The notes under the pieces were generated by a model that saw only the letters and a list, made by a program, of their open reading frames with translations, ran no database searches and was not told where the DNA came from. Below, in pieces: positions 1,994 to 57,972 of a DNA stretch of 64,000 nt (the first letter of the stretch is position 1; every line of letters starts with the position of its first letter). The position numbers and the translations under genes were made by a program. This DNA is from Candidatus Omnitrophota bacterium (GTDB lineage Bacteria; Omnitrophota; Gorgyraeia; Zapsychrales; JAHFFX01): positions 11,210 through 75,209 of the forward strand of contig JAHFFW010000006.1 in NCBI GenBank assembly GCA_023247725.1. The letters are read 5' to 3'.

Positions 1994-2133
1994 CGCTTAA
2001 CGTGGGACGTTGGACGTTCGCTCGCTAGGGCGAAAGACGCGGTTGATGTAATTCACAAAAAGATTCCACCTTTTTTTCCATCGTGGAAAGCATGGCAAAA
2101 ATATGCTCGTATTTTTCATCTAAATTGACTTCA

Positions 2134-2168
2134 CGGGGAATTTTCATCGTCGGGGGTTACAAATTACC
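2134..2168. repeat. Family-C 38-nt motif CGGGGAATTTTCATCGTCGGGGGTTACAAATTACC
   Basis: Near-identical copies at 5407-5445 and 14728-14766. Confidence 0.55.
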
Positions 2169-2238
2169 GCGACGATTCACGCTTCACGAAGGACGCCACG
2201 TCTTAGCACCTCGTATCTCGCGAAGCGTATCTCATCTT

Positions 2239-2304
2239 ACCGGTTATCCGGCAATCTGGTAATTCGGAAATGATGACCCGGGTATCCGGATTCCCATTTC
2301 CGAC
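2239..2304. repeat. Family-B ~65-nt repeat ACCGGTTATCCGGCAATCTGGTAAT...CCGGGTATCCGGATTCCCATTTCCGAC
   Basis: Copy at 14622-14718 shares GGTTATCCGGCAATCTGGT and CCGGRTATCMGGATTYCCMTTTCCG. Confidence 0.55.
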
Positions 2305-2349
2305 GTCCCACGTCCAAACGACCTTGCGCTCTAGCGAGGAGTGAACGTC

Positions 2350-3447
2350 CTACGTCCCACGTTTATGAAGCTCCATCATCTCAATAAACTGCCTAAACAA
2401 ATACTGCGCATCCTCAGGACCCGGCGCGCTTTCCGGATGGTATTGAATGGAGAACATCGGGAATTTCTTGTGCCGCAGGCCCTCGACGGTATGGTCATTG
2501 AGATTAACATGCGTAATTTCCACATCAGCCGAATTAAGGCTTTTGAGGTCCACACAAAATCCGTGATTCTGAGAAGTGATGCCGATGCGGTTGGCCGGCA
2601 TGTCGAGAACGGGATGGTTAGCCCCATGATGACCAAATTTCAATTTATAGGTCGAGCCGCCCAACGCCAATCCCAAAATCTGATGCCCTAGGCAAATGCC
2701 AAAGACCGGAACTTTGCCCAAGGCCTGCTGCACCGTCTCGATGACATACGTCACGACCGCGGGATCGCCTGGACCATTGGACAAAAATAATCCGTCGGGA
2801 TTAATGCTAAGAATTTCTTTTAAACTGGCCGTGGCCGGAAAGACATGAATTTCACAGCCTAGACTCGCGAGGATTCGGAGAATATTGAATTTAATACCGC
2901 AATCGATCGCAGCCACCCGAAAATGCATCGTTCCCTGCGCCGGCCAGACGTATTTCTCTTGGGTCGTGACGCTTTTGACCCAGTCATAACCGACCATATC
3001 CGGGACCGCCTTCATTTTTTCCGCCAGTGATTGCGGATCAAAATCTTCCGTCGAAATAAGACCCTTCATCGCGCCAAACAAACGCAAATGCCGGGTGAGG
3101 GCGCGGGTATCGACTCCCTCGACGGCCATAATCTTATTTTCGTTCAAATAGTCGATGAGGCTTTTGGTGGCGCGGAAATTAGAATGGTGACGACAAAATT
3201 CCTTGACGACAAAGGCCTTAACATGGATCTTTTTAGATTCGATATCTTCGGAATTGATGCCGTAATTCCCAATCAAGGGATAGGTCATGACCACGATTTG
3301 CCCGGCATAGGAAGGATCGGTGAGAACTTCTTGATAGCCGGACATGGAGGTATTAAAGACAACTTCTCCGGCGGTCTCACTGGTTGTCGCTAATGACTTT
3401 CCGATGAAGGATTTGCCATCTTGCAGATACAGAATCGCTTTTTTCAT
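2350..3447 (-). CDS. carA: Carbamoyl-phosphate synthase small subunit (glutamine amidotransferase)
   Basis: Full-length similarity to CarA: GICLGHQ GATase catalytic Cys, HPE motif near the C-terminus. The ORF track starts at a GTG (3456). ATG at 3447 gives the typical MKKAILYLQDG N-terminus. Confidence 0.9.
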   Translation of the reverse strand: MKKAILYLQDGKSFIGKSLATTSETAGEVVFNTSMSGYQEVLTDPSYAGQIVVMTYPLIGNYGINSEDIESKKIHVKAFVVKEFCRHHSNFRATKSLIDYLNENKIMAVEGVDTRALTRHLRLFGAMKGLISTEDFDPQSLAEKMKAVPDMVGYDWVKSVTTQEKYVWPAQGTMHFRVAAIDCGIKFNILRILASLGCEIHVFPATASLKEILSINPDGLFLSNGPGDPAVVTYVIETVQQALGKVPVFGICLGHQILGLALGGSTYKLKFGHHGANHPVLDMPANRIGITSQNHGFCVDLKSLNSADVEITHVNLNDHTVEGLRHKKFPMFSIQYHPESAPGPEDAQYLFRQFIEMMELHKRGT

Positions 3448-3543
3448 GTGAAGCACCTACGGAGGGCGTTAACCGTCAGGCAAAAAGAAGGGGATTTTAT
3501 AAAACCCAGGCGGTTAGGGAAGAAAAACTTCCAGGCCCCCAGC

Positions 3544-3571
3544 ACTATAACATTGGGCAATCTTTTGTCAA
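3544..3571 (-). promoter_or_regulatory. Sigma70-type promoter upstream of carA (-35 TTGACA, 16-nt spacer, -10 TATAGT on minus strand)
   Basis: Plus-strand TGTCAA at 3566-3571 and ACTATA at 3544-3549, about 90 nt upstream of the carA ATG. Confidence 0.4.
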
Positions 3572-3615
3572 GCCTTATCAAAGTGAAAATCTTCCCAATA
3601 TTCTATTTTTCAAAA

Positions 3616-3882
3616 CTAAATCCCTTTTTCAGCCACTGGTTTACCCTGGCCTGAGCGAATTCTTTCTTTTTCGGTTTTTCGGTCGGCGATTGTCAGCATG
3701 ATGATCATGGCGATAATCCAAATAAACATGAGGATCGTTGGAACAGCAAAAAAAACCGCCAGCGCCAGCATTTTGTCTTTTTTCAAGGCAAACAGTGTGC
3801 CCGCGATCCAACCCACGACCCCGACAATGATCAAACCTAGCATAATCTGATTGCTCATAGATTTTCTTTTAGGCAAACTCAA
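3616..3882 (-). CDS. Small hydrophobic membrane protein (88 aa), function unknown
   Basis: Two predicted TM helices. 4-nt overlap with the glpD stop suggests translational coupling. Confidence 0.4.
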   Translation of the reverse strand: MSLPKRKSMSNQIMLGLIIVGVVGWIAGTLFALKKDKMLALAVFFAVPTILMFIWIIAMIIMLTIADRKTEKERIRSGQGKPVAEKGI

Positions 3883-5393: not shown

Positions 5394-5406
5394 AACAATC
5401 TGACTC

Positions 5407-5445
5407 CCCGGGGAGTTTTCATCGTCGGGGGCGACAAAACTTCCT
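5407..5445. repeat. Family-C motif CCCCGGGGAGTTTTCATCGTCGGGGGCGACAAAACTTCC in the glpK-glpD intercistronic gap
   Basis: Read directly. Ends 14 nt upstream of the glpD start. Confidence 0.55.
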
Positions 5446-5455
5446 CCTCAACAAT

Positions 5456-6949
5456 CTACGGGAGTAAGGACTTCTTCACGGCTCTCTGCCAGCCTGCGTA
5501 CAAGGCGTTCTTTTTTGCCGCCGGCATGGACGGATGAAAAACGCGTTCGGTTTCAAAAAGTTTTTGCAAATCGCTTTTGCCCTGCCAAAGGCCAGCGGTG
5601 ACCCCGGCCAAAAAGGCCGCGCCCTGCGCGGTTGATTCCACGGTCTTGGGCCGGCGGATCCGGCAGTCCAAGATATCGGCCTGAAACTGCATGAGGAAAT
5701 TGTTTTTGCAGGCGCCGCCGTCGACATTGAGCTGCCGCAAATTTTTCCCGGATTCTTTTTGCAGGAGAGAAAAAACATCCTTTGTTTGGTAAGCGATGGA
5801 TTCCAGGGCCGCGCGGATGATGTGACGGACATTTGCTCCCCGAGTCAAGCCGCAGATCAGGCCGCGGGCTTGCGAATTCCAATAAGGCGCACCCAAACCA
5901 GTAAAAGCTGGAACAAAATAAACGCCTTGGGTATCGGACAATCCCTTGATCGCGGATTCACTATCGGCCGATTTTTGAATGACCTTGAGTTCATCGCGCA
6001 GCCATTGGATGACTGCCCCGGCGATGAAGACCGCACCTTCCAGGGCATAAACCGGTTGGCCGCGATCATCGCAGGCCAAGGTTGATAACAAACCATTTTG
6101 GGAGTAGATGAGTTTCTGGCCTGTATTCAAAACTAAAAAGCATCCGGTACCATAAGTATTTTTAACGCTGCCGGCTTCAAAGCAGCCCTGTCCGTAAAGC
6201 GCCGCCTGCTGGTCGCCCATCACCGCGGCAATGGGAATTCCCGACGGCAAACCCGCGACGCCGGCGGCGGTCTTGCCGAAGACGCTGCCGGAATGGCGTA
6301 CCTGCGGCAAGACCGCCGCCGGCACCTTCAATAATTTCAAGATCTCCTCGTCCCATTGGAACTTGCGGATATCAAAAAGCATGGTCCGCGAGGCATTGGT
6401 CATATCGGTCGCGTGGGACTGACCCCCGGTCAATTTCCAAATGAGCCAGCTGTCGATTGTCCCAAAACACAATTCGCCTTTTTGGGCCCGCACCCGCGCT
6501 CCTCTAACATGATCCAAAATCCATTGGATCTTTGTTCCGGAAAAATACGGATCGAGGACCAATCCCGTTTTTTTTCGAATCAGCCCGGCGTACGGTTTTA
6601 ATCCGGGGCTCTGACACATCGAAGCGGTCCGTCGGCATTGCCAGACAATGGCTCGATGAATGGGACGAGAAGTCCTTCGATCCCACACGACAGTCGTCTC
6701 GCGTTGATTGGTGATGCCGATAGCCACAATCATTTGGGGGGAAATTTTTGCGGCGCGGATGGCGTTCTTAACGACATTCTCACATGAGCGCCAAATTTCT
6801 TCGGCATCATGTTCCACCCATCCGGGCTGTGGATAATATTGGGGGAATTCCTGATAACTGCTGGAAATGATTTGTCCGCGGCGGTCAAAAATAAAGGCCC
6901 GCGAGCCGGTCGTTCCCTGGTCAAGGGCTAGAATATATTGATTTTTCAT
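5456..6949 (-). CDS. glpK: Glycerol kinase
   Basis: ILALDQGTTGSRAFIFD N-terminus, FGGY sugar-kinase signatures, 497 aa. Confidence 0.9.
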   Translation of the reverse strand: MKNQYILALDQGTTGSRAFIFDRRGQIISSSYQEFPQYYPQPGWVEHDAEEIWRSCENVVKNAIRAAKISPQMIVAIGITNQRETTVVWDRRTSRPIHRAIVWQCRRTASMCQSPGLKPYAGLIRKKTGLVLDPYFSGTKIQWILDHVRGARVRAQKGELCFGTIDSWLIWKLTGGQSHATDMTNASRTMLFDIRKFQWDEEILKLLKVPAAVLPQVRHSGSVFGKTAAGVAGLPSGIPIAAVMGDQQAALYGQGCFEAGSVKNTYGTGCFLVLNTGQKLIYSQNGLLSTLACDDRGQPVYALEGAVFIAGAVIQWLRDELKVIQKSADSESAIKGLSDTQGVYFVPAFTGLGAPYWNSQARGLICGLTRGANVRHIIRAALESIAYQTKDVFSLLQKESGKNLRQLNVDGGACKNNFLMQFQADILDCRIRRPKTVESTAQGAAFLAGVTAGLWQGKSDLQKLFETERVFHPSMPAAKKNALYAGWQRAVKKSLLP

Positions 6950-8481: not shown

Positions 8482-8497
8482 CAATGACCCACCGCCT

Positions 8498-8521
8498 GGG
8501 CATCCGGATAACCGGATGCCC
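8498..8521. repeat. Perfect 10-4-10 palindrome GGGCATCCGG-ATAA-CCGGATGCCC. It belongs to the GGTTATCCGG repeat family
   Basis: Read directly from the sequence. Lies between the lnt stop and the downstream gene start. Confidence 0.6.
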
Positions 8522-8540
8522 TATGAACTAGGGATAGATT

Positions 8541-14727: not shown

Positions 14728-14766
14728 TCCCGGGGAATTTTTGTCGTCGGGGTTCACAAAACTCCC
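14728..14766. repeat. Family-C motif CTCCCGGGGAATTTTTGTCGTCGGGGTTCACAAAACTCC
   Basis: Read directly. Adjacent to the family-B copy, as in the carA/carB element. Confidence 0.55.
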
Positions 14767-14773
14767 CGATCCC

Positions 14774-33226: not shown

Positions 33227-34046
33227 GTCCGTTCTCCTTAAGTTTGATCTTCCCTAATAATATAATGAGAATAAAACCAAGAACAACAACCGGTGTTCTC
33301 CCCCTGCCGGTAGGCTCTTGGACGCCATTGCCCAAAAAAAAATTCCCCCAACAGCCTAGACGACGGCCATTGGAGGACTTCTGTGCCCTACCTAATTCCT
33401 CGAATTCCTATCACCTTGTTGCCTCAAATTTTTTGCTCGAGGGTAAAATCGAAGACGCCAATGCCTTCAACTTTTGCCCAAGTATAATAATGCGCCTTGG
33501 ACTTGTCAAGAAAATTTTCTAACGCTGACAAAGCCGAAAACATTCGCTGACAAATTTTCTTATGCGTGAATAAATTTGGAACAAAACAGACAAAAATCAA
33601 AAAACAGGATCCCGAGACTAAAGCCGATGGCAAGGCGTTCCAAACTTTTGGCCCAGGCATCGGAGTGTTCATTAGGATTGGTCATCGCCTCTATCCTCCT
33701 TACTCGTTGGTATAACAAAAAAGCCCAGCCCCAGTGTCACCCGGCGACTGAGCGTCTGCGCTTTTTTTATTTTCTAAACCCGAAGATTTAAAAAATAAAC
33801 CCCACCGAAAGCGATCCCTGCTCTCCAATGGGGCGTCATTGCCCAAAACAAAAACTCTCTAACGGAATTTCCATTAGAGAGCCACGTTGCTCTTTACTTC
33901 CAGATGAATACTTCTTGATCTGGACTCCAAGGCCTCACTGTCTTGGATGAAAGGAAGTATATCGGCTGGCTCACGCGTTGTCAAGTTTTTTGTTCCTTTA
34001 AATCGGGAGCCACCTGTGACCGCTTAACCTGGTCACAAGACACCTG

Positions 34047-34664: not shown

Positions 34665-36881
34665 TCAATCATGCGGCAAGCGGGTGACATTGGCGGCGCA
34701 ATACTTATACGAGGGCTGCCGTGAATAGGGATCAAACGCGGCAAAGGTCAAACGGTTGGTTTCCGGATAGTGCATGGGCATAAACAGCTCTCCCGGCTTT
34801 ACCGTCGGAGTCACAACGGCTTTTGCCTTGACCATTCCTCTGAGACTTGAGACATGGACCCACTGCCCTGGTTCAATTTTAAGCCGGCCGGCATCTTGAG
34901 GATTGATTTCAACGTAGGCTTCTTTCGGATAGAGCTTGCGCAGCACGGCCGATTTTCCGGTGCGGGTCTGGGTATGCCACTGGACCGACGTCCCGCGGCC
35001 GGTTAAAAGGACAAAGGGATAAAATTTGTCGGGCGGCTCCGGGACCGACCGGATGTCTTCAAAGAGGAATCTGGCTTTGCCGTCGGGATGATAAAATTTT
35101 CCATCTGCAAACAATCGGCGTTCACTATTTTGATGCAGGTTGAGGGCTTCGGCGGTCATCGACTCTGGAAACGGCCATTGGATTCCGCCAGATTCTTCGA
35201 TCATCTGATAATCCCTGATTCCACTGATATCGGCCGGCGTTTGCCTTGAAATTTTTTTGAGAATTTGAAACACGGCCTCGGGTGAAGACCAATCGGTGAA
35301 CATCTCGGCGCAGCCCCAGTATTGCGCAATCAATTTGAAAATATAAAAATCTGCAAGGGCGACTCCCGGGGCCGCGGCCACTTTTCGAAAAAGCCCCAGG
35401 CGTCGTTCGGAATTGATCACGGTCCCTTCTTTTTCTCCCCAGCCCGCCGCCGGCAAAACCAGATCGGCCAATTGCGCCATTTCTGTCGTCGCATACATAT
35501 CTTGCACGACGAGGAAATCCAACTGGCTGATGACTTCCCGGAAATCGTGCTGATTGATCCAGGAATGAGCCGGGTTCGTGGCAATGACCCAGAGCCCTTT
35601 GATCTTGTGGACGGGGATTTGTTCCAAGATTTGATCGTAGGACAGGCTGTTCTGGGCGGGAATACAGTCGGGATTGATCTTAAGGATTTCCGCAATCTTG
35701 TGTCGGTGTTCAGGATTAAGAAAATCATAGCCGCCCAGAAGGCTGGTGGTATTGCTGAAAAGCCGCGAACCCATGGCATTGCACTGGCCGGTGATGGAAT
35801 TGGCCCCGGTTCCCGGCCGGCCGATGTTGCCGGTTAAAAGCGCCAGATTAATAATGGCCTGGGCCAGGCGCACGCCTTCATGACTTTGATTGACACCCAT
35901 GGTCCACCAGAACGATACCCGTTGACCGCAATGAATCAGGTCAGCCAATTCCTCAATTTCTTTGATCGCCAAACCTGTGGCGGCGCTCACCAATTCCAGC
36001 GGAAACTGGCGAACATGGTCGGTAAATTCGGAAAAGCCATTCGTGTGCCGCTCGACAAAAATCTGGTTGATCCATCCGTTGGCGATAAAAATACGGGCCA
36101 ATCCATAAAACAGCGAGAGATCCGATTTAGGCGCGACGGTATAGTGATGCGTGGCCGCCATGGCTGTTTCTGTTTTCCGCGGATCAATCACGACGATTTT
36201 GGGGTGATGGCGGTTCATGAGAACCCGCTGCCACATGATGGGATGCGCGATGCAGGGATTCGCGCCAACAAAAACCAAAACATCGGATTCTTCGAAATCT
36301 TTGTAGGTAAATGGCGGGGCATCGAATCCAAAGGATTGCTTATAAGCGACGGCGGCGGTGGCCATACATTGACGCGTATTGGCGTCACCGTGCACCATTC
36401 CCATGCCGAATTTAGCCAACGCGCCCAAGAGCGCCATTTCTTCCGTGCAGAATTGTCCCGTACTTAAAAAAGCAACCCTCTCGGCCCCGTATTTGCGTTG
36501 GATGTCTTTAAATCTTCCGACGAAGATTTTGAGTGCGGTATCCCAATCGACGGCTACCAATTTTCCAAAACGATCTTTGAGCAAAGGGGTTTTGGCACGA
36601 TCGGGAGCCGTGAGCGGCGTGAGCGCCTCCCAGCCTTTGGGGCAGGCCTCGCCCAGATTCACCGGATGATGACGGTTCGGCGTCAAATTGACAGCTTCAC
36701 GGTTGCGCAGGTGCACGGTCAGACTGCAGCCCGTCGAGCAATAACCGCAGATGAGATTGACCGCCGCCTGTGGCATGAGCCTTTTAGGCAACTGGCCCAA
36801 TCCTAACACCGAAGGTTCCAATATCAGCTCTTGAGTCAGATCGCCGTTGGTTTTGTAAAAAATATCGCGGAGTTTATCCAT
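34665..36881 (-). CDS. Assimilatory nitrate reductase catalytic subunit, NarB/NasA-type molybdopterin oxidoreductase, cytoplasmic (no Tat signal)
   Basis: N-terminal 4Fe-4S motif [10 protein letters not shown], Mo-bisMGD domains, 738 aa, C-terminal tail typical of assimilatory enzymes. Nitrogen-assimilation context. Confidence 0.75.
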
Positions 36882-36888
36882 ATTTTGT

Positions 36889-37010
36889 TCCGAGGGACGA
36901 TCGACGACCGCTCGGCCAATAGTACGGTGGTCTCGCTAGGATGAAGGACGAGAAAATGTCTTCGTCCCTCGTCCTAGCGAACGAAGTGAGCGGTCATCCT
37001 TCATCCCTCT
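36889..37010. repeat. GGGACG-core self-complementary repeat (AGGATGARGGACGA type) filling the narB / FeS-NrfD intercistronic gap
   Basis: Nested inverted repeats GACCGCTC...GAGCGGTC and GCTAGGA-TGAA-GGACGAG...CTCGTCC-TAGC. A related copy lies at 56511-56625. Confidence 0.6.
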
Positions 37011-38633
37011 TTATAAAACGTCTTTCTCCAAGCCACCACCTGGCATCTTGAGCGGAACGACCGCCCGGAAAAAAAGAAACCTTTCCAAAGATTCCCCGAT
37101 CAAAGAGAAACCTAAGATCGCTGCAACCAAAGCCCACGGGACTTCGGTCGTCGAAGAATTCAATTTTGCCGCCAACACCAAGGGCAAAATGACACCACCG
37201 AGCAATCCAAGAATAAAACGGGCATTCGTCACCCGGCGCAGAGGTCGGCTCATTAAAAAGGCCGTCTTCTTGAGCGCCGTCCATTCTTTTTCCCGTAAAT
37301 GCCGCAAAAAAATTCCCTCGGTGAGCAATTTGCCTAACACCAACGCGGCCATCAACCGACAGACGAAAATTTCCCCAACCTTCGATGATCCGCCAAAAAA
37401 TAAAAACGCCGGAAGGATCGCCGCCAATCCCAAAATCCCCGTCGTCAAAAAGAATTTCACCATCGTCTGCGGATGGTCCCAAAAAGGCCGCCGCGTGACT
37501 TTATAAACCATGATCGAACACCCAATCCCGAATAGTCCTAAAATCGCCGTTATGATCGCCAAGATTTGATTCGTCAAACCTCCCTCATGTTTCCAGGAAG
37601 CCAAAGCATAAAATGCCGTCAAAATAGCAAAAAGACCAAAAGCGATGATTTCACGGCTGAGCCACGAATGCCTTAAACCCAAAACCGCCCGAAACGCCAA
37701 GTGCGGCCGACCCAAATGAAAGATACTGACCGCCATCGCCAAGATTCCGGCGCAAAGCGCCACCAGGGCTTGTACGGCTGGTGCTAACGGATGCGAAATG
37801 ATATCCGAATAGCGGTTCAAAAATAGACCTCCCGCAAATGCCCCGACGGATAACTGAGTCAAGACCAGCATGGCCACCAACGGCCAATGGCAGTGCTCGG
37901 GCTGGAGCGTATAGGAATCGACGGCCATTGTGCCGGAAGGAAATTTCTTTTGCGTCTCGTAGCGGGTTGTCGGTAACGTATAATGCGAATCCGGCGCGTC
38001 GGGGATATTGACAAAATCCGTCGGATGTTCGTAAACGGCGGCGGTCTCAACCAGCGTGATGCGAATCGCACCGTTGGGACAGGCGCGGGCGCAGGCCGGA
38101 GCCTCGCCGACATTTAAACGGCTGATGCACATGTCGCATTTGTGCACAATGCCTTTCTTTCTGTTGTACTTGGGAACATCGTAAGCACAAGTGAAGGTGC
38201 AGTACTGGCACCCGATGCATTGGTCCTCGAGATGCCGGACGACACCACTGTCTTTCTCTTTGACGTACGCATCAACCGGACAACCATTAAGGCATGCCGG
38301 GTCCAGGCAATGATGACAGGCACTCGTCACGTGCTGGATCACCGAATCGCCGTTACGCCCTCCATATAACAATCCGACCGTACGCCAGGTTTCATCTTCG
38401 GGCAATCCGTTTTCATTGTGGCAGGCGGTCACACAGGCCTTGCAGCCGGTGCAGCGATCGAGATCGACGCTAAAGGCGTATTGCTGACCCGGGCCGGGCG
38501 CGCTTTTGGGGATGAGCTCTTCATAAAAATTCATTGCCGGAATCTGTTTTAAGTCGTGCTTCATGGCAAATGCTTCAACGGCAGTCAATTCCTGCTGTTG
38601 TTGCAAATAGGTTTCAATGAGATCTGGAGACAC
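37011..38633 (-). CDS. Fusion protein: 4x[4Fe-4S] ferredoxin domain (DmsB/PsrB/NrfC-like) + NrfD/PsrC-type polytopic membrane quinol-interaction domain, with a ~60-aa unique N-terminal extension
   Basis: Four Cys clusters (CTGCKACVTAC, CHHCLDPAC, CIGCQYCTFTC, CDMCISRL...CARACP), then ~8 TM helices of NrfD type. No signal or Tat motif. GTG start at ~38633 with AAAGGAGA SD 6 nt upstream. The ORF-track TTG at 38687 is not preferred. Confidence 0.7.
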   Translation of the reverse strand: MSPDLIETYLQQQQELTAVEAFAMKHDLKQIPAMNFYEELIPKSAPGPGQQYAFSVDLDRCTGCKACVTACHNENGLPEDETWRTVGLLYGGRNGDSVIQHVTSACHHCLDPACLNGCPVDAYVKEKDSGVVRHLEDQCIGCQYCTFTCAYDVPKYNRKKGIVHKCDMCISRLNVGEAPACARACPNGAIRITLVETAAVYEHPTDFVNIPDAPDSHYTLPTTRYETQKKFPSGTMAVDSYTLQPEHCHWPLVAMLVLTQLSVGAFAGGLFLNRYSDIISHPLAPAVQALVALCAGILAMAVSIFHLGRPHLAFRAVLGLRHSWLSREIIAFGLFAILTAFYALASWKHEGGLTNQILAIITAILGLFGIGCSIMVYKVTRRPFWDHPQTMVKFFLTTGILGLAAILPAFLFFGGSSKVGEIFVCRLMAALVLGKLLTEGIFLRHLREKEWTALKKTAFLMSRPLRRVTNARFILGLLGGVILPLVLAAKLNSSTTEVPWALVAAILGFSLIGESLERFLFFRAVVPLKMPGGGLEKDVL

Positions 38634-38765
38634 GTGATTCTCCTTTAATAACCAATTTCCAGTAGACCAATGACCAAACAAATCCAAATGTTCAAATCAC
38701 CAAAGTTCAAAACGGCTTGGCCATTTGGATTTTGGATTTTTGTGATTTGGTCATTCTTCTATAAA

Positions 38766-44638: not shown

Positions 44639-44648
44639 CCGCTATTCC

Positions 44649-44702
44649 TCAACAAAAGAGGCCTCACCCGCCGAGTTCTAAATCTGGTGCGGGTGAGGCC
44701 TC
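44649..44702 (-). terminator. Leader terminator/attenuator T2: 14-bp perfect stem GAGGCCUCACCCGC-N17-GCGGGUGAGGCCUC, then UUUUGUU, 11 nt before the nirB SD
   Basis: Read directly from the sequence. Confidence 0.55.
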
Positions 44703-44710
44703 ATTGCCTC
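44695..44710 (-). promoter_or_regulatory. ANTAR-type target hairpin: 5-bp stem + hexaloop GAGGC-AAUGAG-GCCUC (A1, G4) overlapping the 5' arm of T2
   Basis: Matches the published ANTAR RNA-motif geometry. The cognate GAF-ANTAR gene is adjacent. Confidence 0.45.
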
Positions 44711-44914
44711 TGGACAAAAAGAAGCTTCCTAAATGGCCCTGCTTCGCCAAATTGTCCTTCGACGTTTGCTCACGGTCCTTCGAACGGTCCTGAAGTAAGG
44801 TTGAAGGAGGTGCTGAGCGTCGTCGAAGGATCGGCTACGCAGGGTTTATCCGTCTGCCTGGGTCGAATCTTTGCCTTTTGTCTGGGAAAACCGACCTACC
44901 TAGCGGAGGCGGAT

Positions 44915-44953
44915 AAAAAAAATCCCGATGGCCATGAATTCGGCTTCATCGGG
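44915..44953 (-). terminator. Leader hairpin T1 CCCGAUG-N16-CAUCGGG followed by U8
   Basis: Read directly. Lies inside the nirB 5' leader. Confidence 0.45.
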
Positions 44954-45020
44954 CTTCTGTGTCCGTCGTTCTTCAGTGAAAAAAGATTTTTGCGACAACT
45001 CTGCCGCCAAAATCGTTTCA

Positions 45021-45048
45021 AATATAATTCAAGCGTAAATGTTTGTCA
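45021..45048 (-). promoter_or_regulatory. Sigma70-type promoter of the nirBD-narK operon (-35 TTGACA, 17 nt, -10 TATATT)
   Basis: Plus-strand TGTCAA 45043-45048 and AATATA 45021-45026. About 375-nt leader. Confidence 0.45.
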
Positions 45049-45100
45049 AGCAATCTTTTCGTTTCGATAGGAATCTCGTCGACGTTTTTGCAAAATTACT

Positions 45101-56510: not shown

Positions 56511-56625
56511 TTTCTATTCTATCGGAATTCCGTAGGATGAGGGACGACCGCTCCCCTATTTGTGGCGCCAGTCGCTCGGACGAGGGACGTAGGATACTCT
56601 TTGAATCGTCCTTCGTCCCTCGGAC
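56511..56625. repeat. GGGACG-core self-complementary repeat separating sucC from sucD
   Basis: CCGTAGGATGAGGGACGACCGCTC...GGACGAGGGACGTAGGAT...CGTCCTTCGTCCCTCGGAC, related to 36889-37010. Confidence 0.6.
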
Positions 56626-57765: not shown

Positions 57766-57972
57766 TTAACGTGGGACATCGGACGTCCGCACTTGACTAG
57801 AACAGCAGGTGCTCGGACGTAGGATGTCTTCATTACAAAATGATCCTACAACTTTTTCTCCGCTACGTCCCTCATTTTTCCTTCCAAGTAGACCTCTCAT
57901 TGCTACGTCCCGCGTCCAAACGACACTGAGCATTTAGCGAGGAGTGGACGAACTTACGTCCTACGTTATTAA
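57766..57972. repeat. ~207-bp element bounded by inverted repeats AACGTGGGACAT...ACGTCCTACGTT, carrying GGGACG-core internal motifs, upstream of sucC
   Basis: Ends and inner block (ACGTCCCGCGTCCAAACGAC...AGCGAGGAGTGGACG) are near-identical to the element at 1997-2363. TTAA at both boundaries. Confidence 0.6.

Follow-up and report, generated by a model that had tools for sequence, protein, structure and literature searches.

An intervening sequence (IVS) in the rRNA of Coxiella carries an S23p open reading frame (ORF) in the loop of a 28-bp stem, which is formed by terminal inverted repeats (TIRs) and is cut by RNase III within the stem (PMC4990558). RNase III excision of IVSs has likewise been reported for Leptospira, Salmonella and Alphaproteobacteria (PMC4990558). 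Genes of the S23p family (PF05635, 23S rRNA intervening-sequence protein) were found to sit within operons in a survey of cas genes (PMC3936711). Another type of repeat, the heptamer repeats of Cyanobacteria and Beggiatoaceae, is often located near start codons; the spread of the TAACTGA repeats across phyla has been recorded with no mechanism given, and only a single repeat set of the 170 in the Guaymas genome is not direct (PMC4679880). A literature search found heptamer arrays and PF05635 cassettes connected nowhere, with most subscription journals outside its coverage. Here, we analyzed a 64,000-nt stretch of contig JAHFFW010000006.1 from a Candidatus Omnitrophota bacterium (the window), in which a palindrome at positions 36889-37010, element T, occupies the gap between two genes of a nitrate-assimilation (nas) operon. 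In our reading, T is probably an IVS-like hairpin without an ORF, transcribed along with the operon and derived from a family of heptamer arms linked to S23p genes.

T consists of two pairs of complementary arms nested around a short loop, with the following parts:

36889-37010, minus strand (the strand of the surrounding genes): element T, an ORF-less near-palindrome, defined by sequence, fold and its absence from orthologous loci
36891-36913, no strand: outer arm A, CGAGGGACGA-TCGACGA-CCGCTC (heptamer pair and CCGCTC box), pairing with 36988-37010 in the minimum free energy (MFE) structure
36914-36932, no strand: 19-nt insert GGCCAATAGTACGGTGGTC, which interrupts the box and folds into a side hairpin of 3 bp (fold, sequence)
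36933-36951, no strand: inner arm C, TCGCTAG box and heptamer pair GGATGAAGGACGA (arm pattern, coordinates)
36952-36961, no strand: apical loop GAAAATGTCT, 10 nt (fold)
36962-36980, no strand: inner arm C', TCGTCCCTCGTCCTAGCGA, complementary to arm C (arm pattern, coordinates)
36981-37010, no strand: spacer ACGAAGT and outer arm A' (GAGCGGTCATCCTTCATCCCTCT), from the alignment to an S23p flank

All four arms are pairs of 7-nt units, GGGAYGA or its complement, spaced exactly 7 nt apart, and tandem heptamer matches were located at 36938/36945, 36962/36969 and 36994/37001. Arm C reads TCGCTAG GATGAAGGACGA and pairs with arm C' over 19 nt with one mismatch and one wobble. The 19-nt insert is the sole asymmetric part of the element; in relatives, CCGCT is joined directly to TCGCTAG. 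The apical loop lies at the position of the S23p ORF in full-length relatives. T holds TIRs forming a long stem but lacks a PF05635 ORF.

An earlier sequence-only reading had described the gap as filled by nested inverted repeats, and almost the whole gap is indeed a nested palindrome. The sequence blocks it named are all present, namely GACCGCTC (36906-36913) and GAGCGGTC (36988-36995), CGAGGGACGA (36891-36900) and TCGTCCCTCG (36962-36971) as well as GGATGAAGGA (36939-36948) and TCCTTCATCC (36997-37006). The stems had been underestimated: the proposed 8-bp outer stem extends to about 20 bp with a 2x2 internal loop (36891-36913 with 36988-37010), and the proposed inner stem of 7+7 bp consists of the two 19-nt arms at 36933-36951 and 36962-36980. 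Alternative pairings of the flanking segments are real, because all four arms are built from the same tandem heptamer. The blocks said to be shared with a copy in the sucC/sucD gap were also found, with the restriction that GAGGGACGACCGCTC is contiguous only in that copy (56539-56553) and is interrupted in T by the extra heptamer TCGACGA.

Folded as minus-strand RNA, T reached an MFE of -71.4 kcal/mol (z-score -9.1, 0/200 shuffles as good), compared to -66.2 kcal/mol (z -6.4) for the plus-strand RNA, and none of the other 28 intergenic gaps compared in the window is as structured. Four matches to TCGCTMGGAYGARGGACGW, the arm pattern, occur in the window at up to two mismatches, with 0.00 expected. 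A chance palindrome was therefore rejected based on the fold and on the expectation for the arm pattern. Unusually stable folds were also detected in the gaps at 8485-8540 (a GC-rich perfect hairpin), 44639-45100 and 33227-33980, with z-scores of -5.7, -5.5 and -4.6; these gaps contain 1, 1 and 5 tandem 7/8-mer repeat positions, respectively, versus 10 in T.

At four loci in other genomes (L013, L015, L088 and L113), the arm block directly adjoins a PF05635 gene of 120-145 aa, with a purine-rich array upstream of the gene and its complement downstream. Altogether, inverted arrays bracket 8/9 of the PF05635 genes contained in the fetched loci, among them some that lie over 1 kb from the pattern match. 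The heptamer used at these genes varies by copy (GGGACGA, GGACGTG, GAGGTCA, AATTACG, TAGCGGA, CCATTGA).

A protein-only sample of S23p genes showed the same arrangement. It comprised 80 metagenome loci and was collected with a profile from four sequences, so that it covers one S23p subfamily only; flank periodicity was analyzed in 150-nt flanks of those 71 loci that extend at least 100 nt beyond the gene in either direction, and the other tests used 68 non-redundant loci. Tandem repeats with a period of 7 were observed 779 times (~26 expected) and those with a period of 8 were observed 850 times (~7 expected), an enrichment of 30-100 fold, with none at periods 9-11. The upstream flanks are purine-rich (median 0.745), and their comparison with the reverse-complemented downstream flanks gave a median score of 40 versus 18 in shuffles. 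A cassette's own downstream arm was the best partner of its upstream arm in 14/68 cases, with one expected, and ranked among the top three in 29/68. Arrays of the GGAYGW type were present on both sides in 18/68 loci, and a crude check found the upstream neighbour co-oriented with the S23p gene in 51/56.

Element T can be aligned directly to such a flank. Positions 36962-37010 match locus L123 with 86% over 49 nt (E 4e-6 in 169 kb), and the alignment begins 3 nt after the S23p stop codon; loci L121 and L126 match similarly, and 7/7 matches of T lie no more than 200 nt from an S23p ORF. Among pairs of S23p ORFs that are at least 80% identical in nucleotide sequence, the outer flanks are unrelated in 24/36, which fits a multi-copy or mobile unit.

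The tight linkage of heptamer/octamer arrays to S23p genes would also be expected if the arrays were protein-binding sites in RNA or DNA, most plausibly for an S23p pentamer. T would then be regulated in trans, with S23p from elsewhere modulating nasA. From our reading of the flanks, the heptamer type tends to track S23p similarity, as loci with 75-85% identity to the query mostly have GGGACGA/GAGACGA arrays and those with 60-68% mostly GAAGTTG/GAGAAGAT arrays. Moreover, Avd, an accessory protein of diversity-generating retroelements that belongs to the related bAvd family (Pfam PF22296), binds nucleic acid; three S23p proteins matched PF22296 weakly (23-28 bits versus a cut-off of 40 bits). 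Nevertheless, we regard this explanation as unlikely. The binding sites are putative, the window contains no intact S23p gene, and the arrays are always placed such that they can pair mutually, for which the requirement for a stem suffices without any protein.

To define the family beyond the window, species-representative genomes were scanned with the pattern TCGCTMGGAYGARGGACGW, yielding more than 114 loci. About half of the matches listed have no additional heptamers, and 47/55 of those are located within long open frames of high-GC genomes; these are chance matches. The remaining ones share a longer block, CCGAGGGACGA-nGGACGA-CCGCT-(0-15 nt)-TCGCTAGGACGARGGACGA, which a strict rule identifies at no fewer than 34 of the loci listed and inspection of the match contexts at ~55. 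The hosts include many Omnitrophota metagenome-assembled genomes (MAGs) as well as Desulfobacterales, among them the isolate Desulfosarcina variabilis str. Montpellier (NZ_CP159846.1, locus L029), and members of Syntrophus, Syntrophorhabdaceae, Planctomycetia, Nitrospirota and Auribacterota. In total, the block is found in at least six phyla (Omnitrophota, Desulfobacterota, Planctomycetota, Nitrospirota, Auribacterota and Margulisiibacteriota), the last of which is represented by locus L013, recognized by inspection and outside the strict set of 34. In agreement with the sequence-only reading, T thus belongs to a family of self-complementary repeats, but the family is not specific to one genome, as that reading had assumed.

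Complete hairpins with the arm-box-arm layout of T were found at L076, L086, L054 and L014, and L095 and L077 retain the outer arm and the box only. Variants in one arm are compensated on the opposite side, for example GGGACGA:TCGTCCC versus GGGAAGA:TCTTCCC. The long-loop members L111, L042, L023, L058 and L089 hold no clear gene as cargo. A restriction to positions inside operons, which had been considered earlier, does not apply: by neighbour orientation, 19 of the classifiable copies are tandem, 5 convergent and 4 divergent, in a noisy classification based on crude stop-to-stop frames. With this method 24/61 family matches fell inside open frames, which probably run through stop-poor purine arrays.

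Two observations were made next to family members. In locus L015, an Auribacterota MAG, the block GGACGAGGGACG is arranged in at least four head-to-tail units of ~64 nt (3404-3620 and ~1780-1900); these arrays lie directly after an S23p gene and could be mistaken for CRISPR by repeat finders. A CRISPR-like array was considered for these tandem units and rejected, T having none of them. Furthermore, a conserved motif GGGGGAGGCTCCG..GGAGGGGGCGACGTGAGCCCC lies 150-250 nt downstream of the GGACGA block in L007 (~5520-5590), L082 and L098 (Syntrophus / Syntrophorhabdus), and in L098 it adjoins a tRNA gene.

A REP-like or RNase-processing role, as suggested by the sequence-only reading, was a reasonable guess. 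Understood as a repetitive extragenic palindrome (REP) or REPIN, T would have been mobilised by a REP-associated tyrosine transposase (RAYT, a Y1 transposase) from another place in the genome and would act as a 3' hairpin shielding the upstream cistron from exonucleases, as do the REPs of the E. coli mal operon. In favour of this, T is a short intergenic palindrome present in several copies, its modules form a mosaic like that of bacterial interspersed mosaic elements (BIMEs), a conserved CTAG tetranucleotide stands beside the stem, and a Pseudomonas-like REP adjoins one family member in L039. However, REP families are normally species-specific, whereas the arm block of T is common to several phyla, and the arms of T are tandem heptamers instead of single imperfect palindromes. 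PF05635 is the only gene found repeatedly between the arms, and no RAYT gene turned up, although no screen for Y1 transposases was made of the window or the other loci. Taken together, an origin of T as a REP or REPIN appears improbable.

Within the window, T is one of four related elements (T, S, B1 and B2), of which B1 and B2 add to those named by the sequence-only reading:

56528-56625, minus strand: element S, GGGACGA type like T, in the sucC/sucD gap (sequence comparison)
1999-2363, minus strand: element B1, 365 nt, sister GGGACGT type (inverted-repeat match, z -9.7)
2028-2156, minus strand: C-terminal remnant of S23p (PF05635) in B1, ..VNLDEKYEHIFAMLSTMEKKVESFCELHQ.. (tblastn, hidden Markov model (HMM) and DNA matches)
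57768-57967, minus strand: element B2, 200 nt, ORF-less, GGGACGT type (inverted-repeat match)

B1 is bounded by TIRs of 19-25 nt, whose arms are 92% complementary, and folds with a z-score of -9.7. Its S23p remnant was recognized by tblastn (71% over 24 aa, E 3e-7) and by HMM (E 9.8e-5), and it matches at the DNA level the 3' part of several S23p ORFs; in addition, B1 matches with its ends the region downstream of the S23p gene in L146. Element S has three arms (56533-56553, 56578-56590 and 56606-56625), and B2 ends 5 nt ahead of the sucC start codon. An independent assembly of the same organism contains S and B2 without any sequence difference. Most simply, T and S (GGGACGA) as well as B2 (GGGACGT) can be read as S23p cassettes that have no ORF, and B1 as one in decay.

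B1 overlaps the stop codon of carA (2350-2352). As the stop and the last few codons of this gene (2350-3456, minus strand) are within the terminal inverted repeat at 2345-2363, the B1 insertion supplies the C-terminal end of the annotated carA ORF. A second small repeat family, a CGGGGAATTTT...AAAAyTCCCCG hairpin, is present at 2131-2172, 5406-5447 and 14728-14769, with 69-79% identity between copies. The first copy is inside B1, exactly where the S23p remnant is truncated, and the other two are in same-strand intergenic gaps.

All named close relatives of the SucD encoded in the window belong to Omnitrophota, which assigns the source organism to this phylum. The sucC-sucD gap was also inspected in three related genomes. 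In the Omnitrophota relative L198 (2404-2500) it contains a CACCCAG/CTGGGT heptamer hairpin (-55 kcal/mol), in L199 (2429-2500) an unrelated hairpin (-35), and in L201 (2447-2500) no hairpin. Differing hairpins, one of them heptamer-built, occupy this gap in 2/3 related genomes, which suggests a hot-spot for insertion or, alternatively, selection favouring some hairpin at the junction.

In the nas operon, T is flanked by the following cistrons:

37011-38687, minus strand: upstream cistron, fusion of a 4Fe-4S dicluster protein and a DmsC-like membrane anchor (FeS-DmsC; Pfam PF13247, PF04976)
34665-36881, minus strand: downstream cistron nasA, NasA-type assimilatory nitrate reductase, a molybdopterin oxidoreductase (Pfam PF04879, PF00384, PF01568)

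The closest homologues of the nasA product carry the name assimilatory nitrate reductase catalytic subunit. Both genes are on the minus strand and are separated by 129 nt (36882-37010); the FeS-DmsC stop codon is 1 nt ahead of T, and the nasA ATG follows ~8 nt past its last paired base. The two closest NasA relatives, with 80% and 74% identity, keep the gene order (porin or transporter of the major facilitator superfamily (MFS), FeS-DmsC, nasA, MOSC), and in both the distance from the FeS-DmsC stop to the nasA start is 12 nt (in one of them TAG-ATAAGTAAGAAT-ATG). The 12-nt spacer in the relatives indicates that T is an insertion and not a conserved nas regulator. The sequence comparison thereby shows a lineage-specific insertion of T, placed between the FeS-DmsC and nasA genes of this Omnitrophota lineage, and the idea that T forms a dedicated part of the nitrate-reductase operon is not supported.

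Being an insertion relative to its orthologues, possessing terminal inverted repeats and having relatives of 122-365 nt in the window and longer, gene-bearing ones elsewhere, T could resemble a classical miniature inverted-repeat transposable element (MITE), meaning a deletion derivative of an insertion sequence with a DDE transposase that shares its TIRs and mobilises it in trans. This is very unlikely: a transposase gene between matching arms was not found in any fetched locus, the cargo between matching arms is PF05635 in four loci with the other inserts holding no clear gene, and the search for a target-site duplication gave nothing consistent, with B1 and B2 disagreeing in their flanks.

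Least probable of all is a dedicated cis-regulatory RNA of the operon selected at this locus (an ANTAR antiterminator target, an attenuator or a translational-coupling modulator), for which the position immediately upstream of nasA, a GAF-ANTAR regulator encoded in a relative's nas cluster and the alternative pairings permitted by redundant arms could be quoted, but which is largely refuted by the lack of T at orthologous nas loci and further disfavoured by the same element type in sucC/sucD and in unrelated contexts across many phyla, by a hairpin without a U-run on the gene strand and by Rfam. The search with Rfam 15 at gathering score gave 0 matches across the whole window, ANTAR targets and riboswitches included, and the sole sub-threshold match, a snoRNA (E 0.54), was judged spurious. 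An ANTAR or riboswitch element was rejected.

Some features of the operon itself are worth recording. The 78-nt gap between the porin and FeS-DmsC genes (38688-38765) holds a small AT-rich hairpin of tandem AAATCCA units and their complement ATTTGGATTT; the nas operon therefore bears a second heptamer-type structure. Between 34145 and 40106, the nitrate reductase is partnered with the membrane-anchored FeS-DmsC fusion, a MOSC-domain protein and an alginate-export-type porin, and the cluster of the relative L002 adds nirBD, an MFS transporter and a GAF-ANTAR regulator to the nas genes. This is an unusual way of supplying electrons to an assimilatory NasA.

Element T is part of an operon-like run of same-strand genes, and no promoter-like or terminator-like site was reported in the gap on the gene strand. 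For these reasons T is most likely transcribed together with its operon, in line with the transcribed element envisaged by the sequence-only reading. On the gene strand, the sequence after the hairpin is GGAACAAAAUAUG, with no U-run. An intrinsic terminator was accordingly rejected, given the missing U-run and a gap free of terminator-like sites.

Combining these results, we propose the following scenario. T would be a non-coding miniature member of a multi-phylum palindromic family whose arms are made of tandem heptamers and the CCGCT..TCGCTAG box, and whose full-length relatives would be gene cassettes with complementary heptamer arrays around a gene for the four-helix-bundle protein PF05635. 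In this scenario, T has retained both arms, with a 10-nt loop in place of the ORF, and was inserted into the short spacer between the FeS-DmsC gene and nasA. In the mRNA, it is predicted to form two stacked helices of ~20 bp each, a double-stranded RNA (dsRNA) that would be a plausible substrate for RNase III. T may be cleaved by this enzyme, as rRNA IVS stems are. By this analogy, the nas transcript may be cleaved between its two cistrons, or hairpin-capped ends may alter the stability of each mRNA segment. The tight 12-nt stop-start junction would be lost to a structured spacer of 129 nt. In our view, T is a tolerated selfish or neutral passenger and not a dedicated nas regulator.

Several points weigh against deriving T from an S23p-linked, IVS-like family. 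Only 4 of the ~55 GGGACGA-block loci in genomes adjoin an S23p gene, and the arms could be an independent repeat at places where S23p genes tend to sit, without being derived from S23p cassettes. The copy number of the family is only extrapolated, from the four elements in the 64-kb window. No target-site duplication or exact boundary of T was definable against the empty site in L002. No rRNA was detected in any fetched family locus, so that it is the common gene family and architecture that connect these elements to true rRNA IVSs. That T is co-transcribed, folds in vivo and is cut by RNase III is our inference. Finally, non-Watson-Crick positions in the S23p stems were G.U in 96 and A.C in 76 cases (p 0.15), in a test to which the out-of-register alignment of tandem repeats adds noise; as the difference is not significant, pairing might matter at the DNA level instead.

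A more far-reaching version is conceivable, and we put it forward tentatively, as a possibility that we judge less likely than its opposite. The arrays and the S23p gene, coding for an Avd-like four-helix bundle, might together constitute a widespread and so far unrecognised self-propagating hairpin cassette that does without a conventional transposase. S23p would recognise the arrays, and ORF-less copies such as T would be non-autonomous. If true, this cassette system would cover the ORF-bearing 23S rRNA IVSs and the heptamer repeats of several phyla as well as the recurrent hairpins in intercistronic gaps of Omnitrophota and Desulfobacterota.

For the nas locus itself, this is a deflationary outcome: what sits there is an inserted hairpin, and annotators should not call it a riboswitch or an attenuator. 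The wider pattern, seen in a protein-only sample of one subfamily, is that PF05635 genes are generally bracketed by complementary arrays of 7-/8-nt units. If this pattern holds, the origin and spread of rRNA IVSs and the unexplained excess of heptamer repeats in intergenic DNA would join in one testable system, and a class of long dsRNA structures in operons of uncultured phyla could shape mRNA processing.

Compared with the known systems, the T family shares with the S23p-bearing rRNA IVSs of Leptospira and Coxiella burnetii the long terminal-repeat stem, PF05635 in the full-length loop, short ORF-less versions and a sporadic distribution that suggests horizontal spread. The IVS stem is dsRNA cut by RNase III (PMC4990558), and the stem of T is of the same kind, its own cleavage being assumed by analogy. 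Unlike these IVSs, T is located in an intercistronic gap of an mRNA and not in helix 9, 25 or 45 of 23S rRNA, and its arms, unlike those of IVSs in the literature found, consist of tandem heptamers plus a box conserved across phyla. The REP, BIME and REPIN sequences of Proteobacteria are, like T, short, multi-copy, palindromic, mosaic and extragenic, also within operons; they are transcribed with neighbouring genes and have known effects on the stability of mRNA segments. T differs from them by an arm block conserved across phyla, by its tandem-heptamer substructure and by S23p directly between the arms at four loci. With the heptamer repeats of Cyanobacteria and Beggiatoaceae (short tandemly repeated repetitive sequences, STRR; TAACTGA), the arrays of T have in common that they are intergenic tandem 7-nt units shared between distant phyla. 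In contrast to these direct arrays, those of the T family are inverted, mutually complementary and linked to S23p genes. The Correia/NEMIS MITEs of Neisseria are TIR-bounded insertions of 100-160 nt that are co-transcribed with genes, as T probably is, and Correia hairpins are cut by RNase III. For T, neither a target-site duplication nor a site for IHF nor a transposase-bearing parent was identified, and the sequences are unrelated. T therefore resembles rRNA IVSs, REP/BIME sequences, MITEs and heptamer repeats in part, yet each of these kinds has one or more defining features that T does not share. Within the nas operon it is unremarkable; its interest lies in the family to which it leads.

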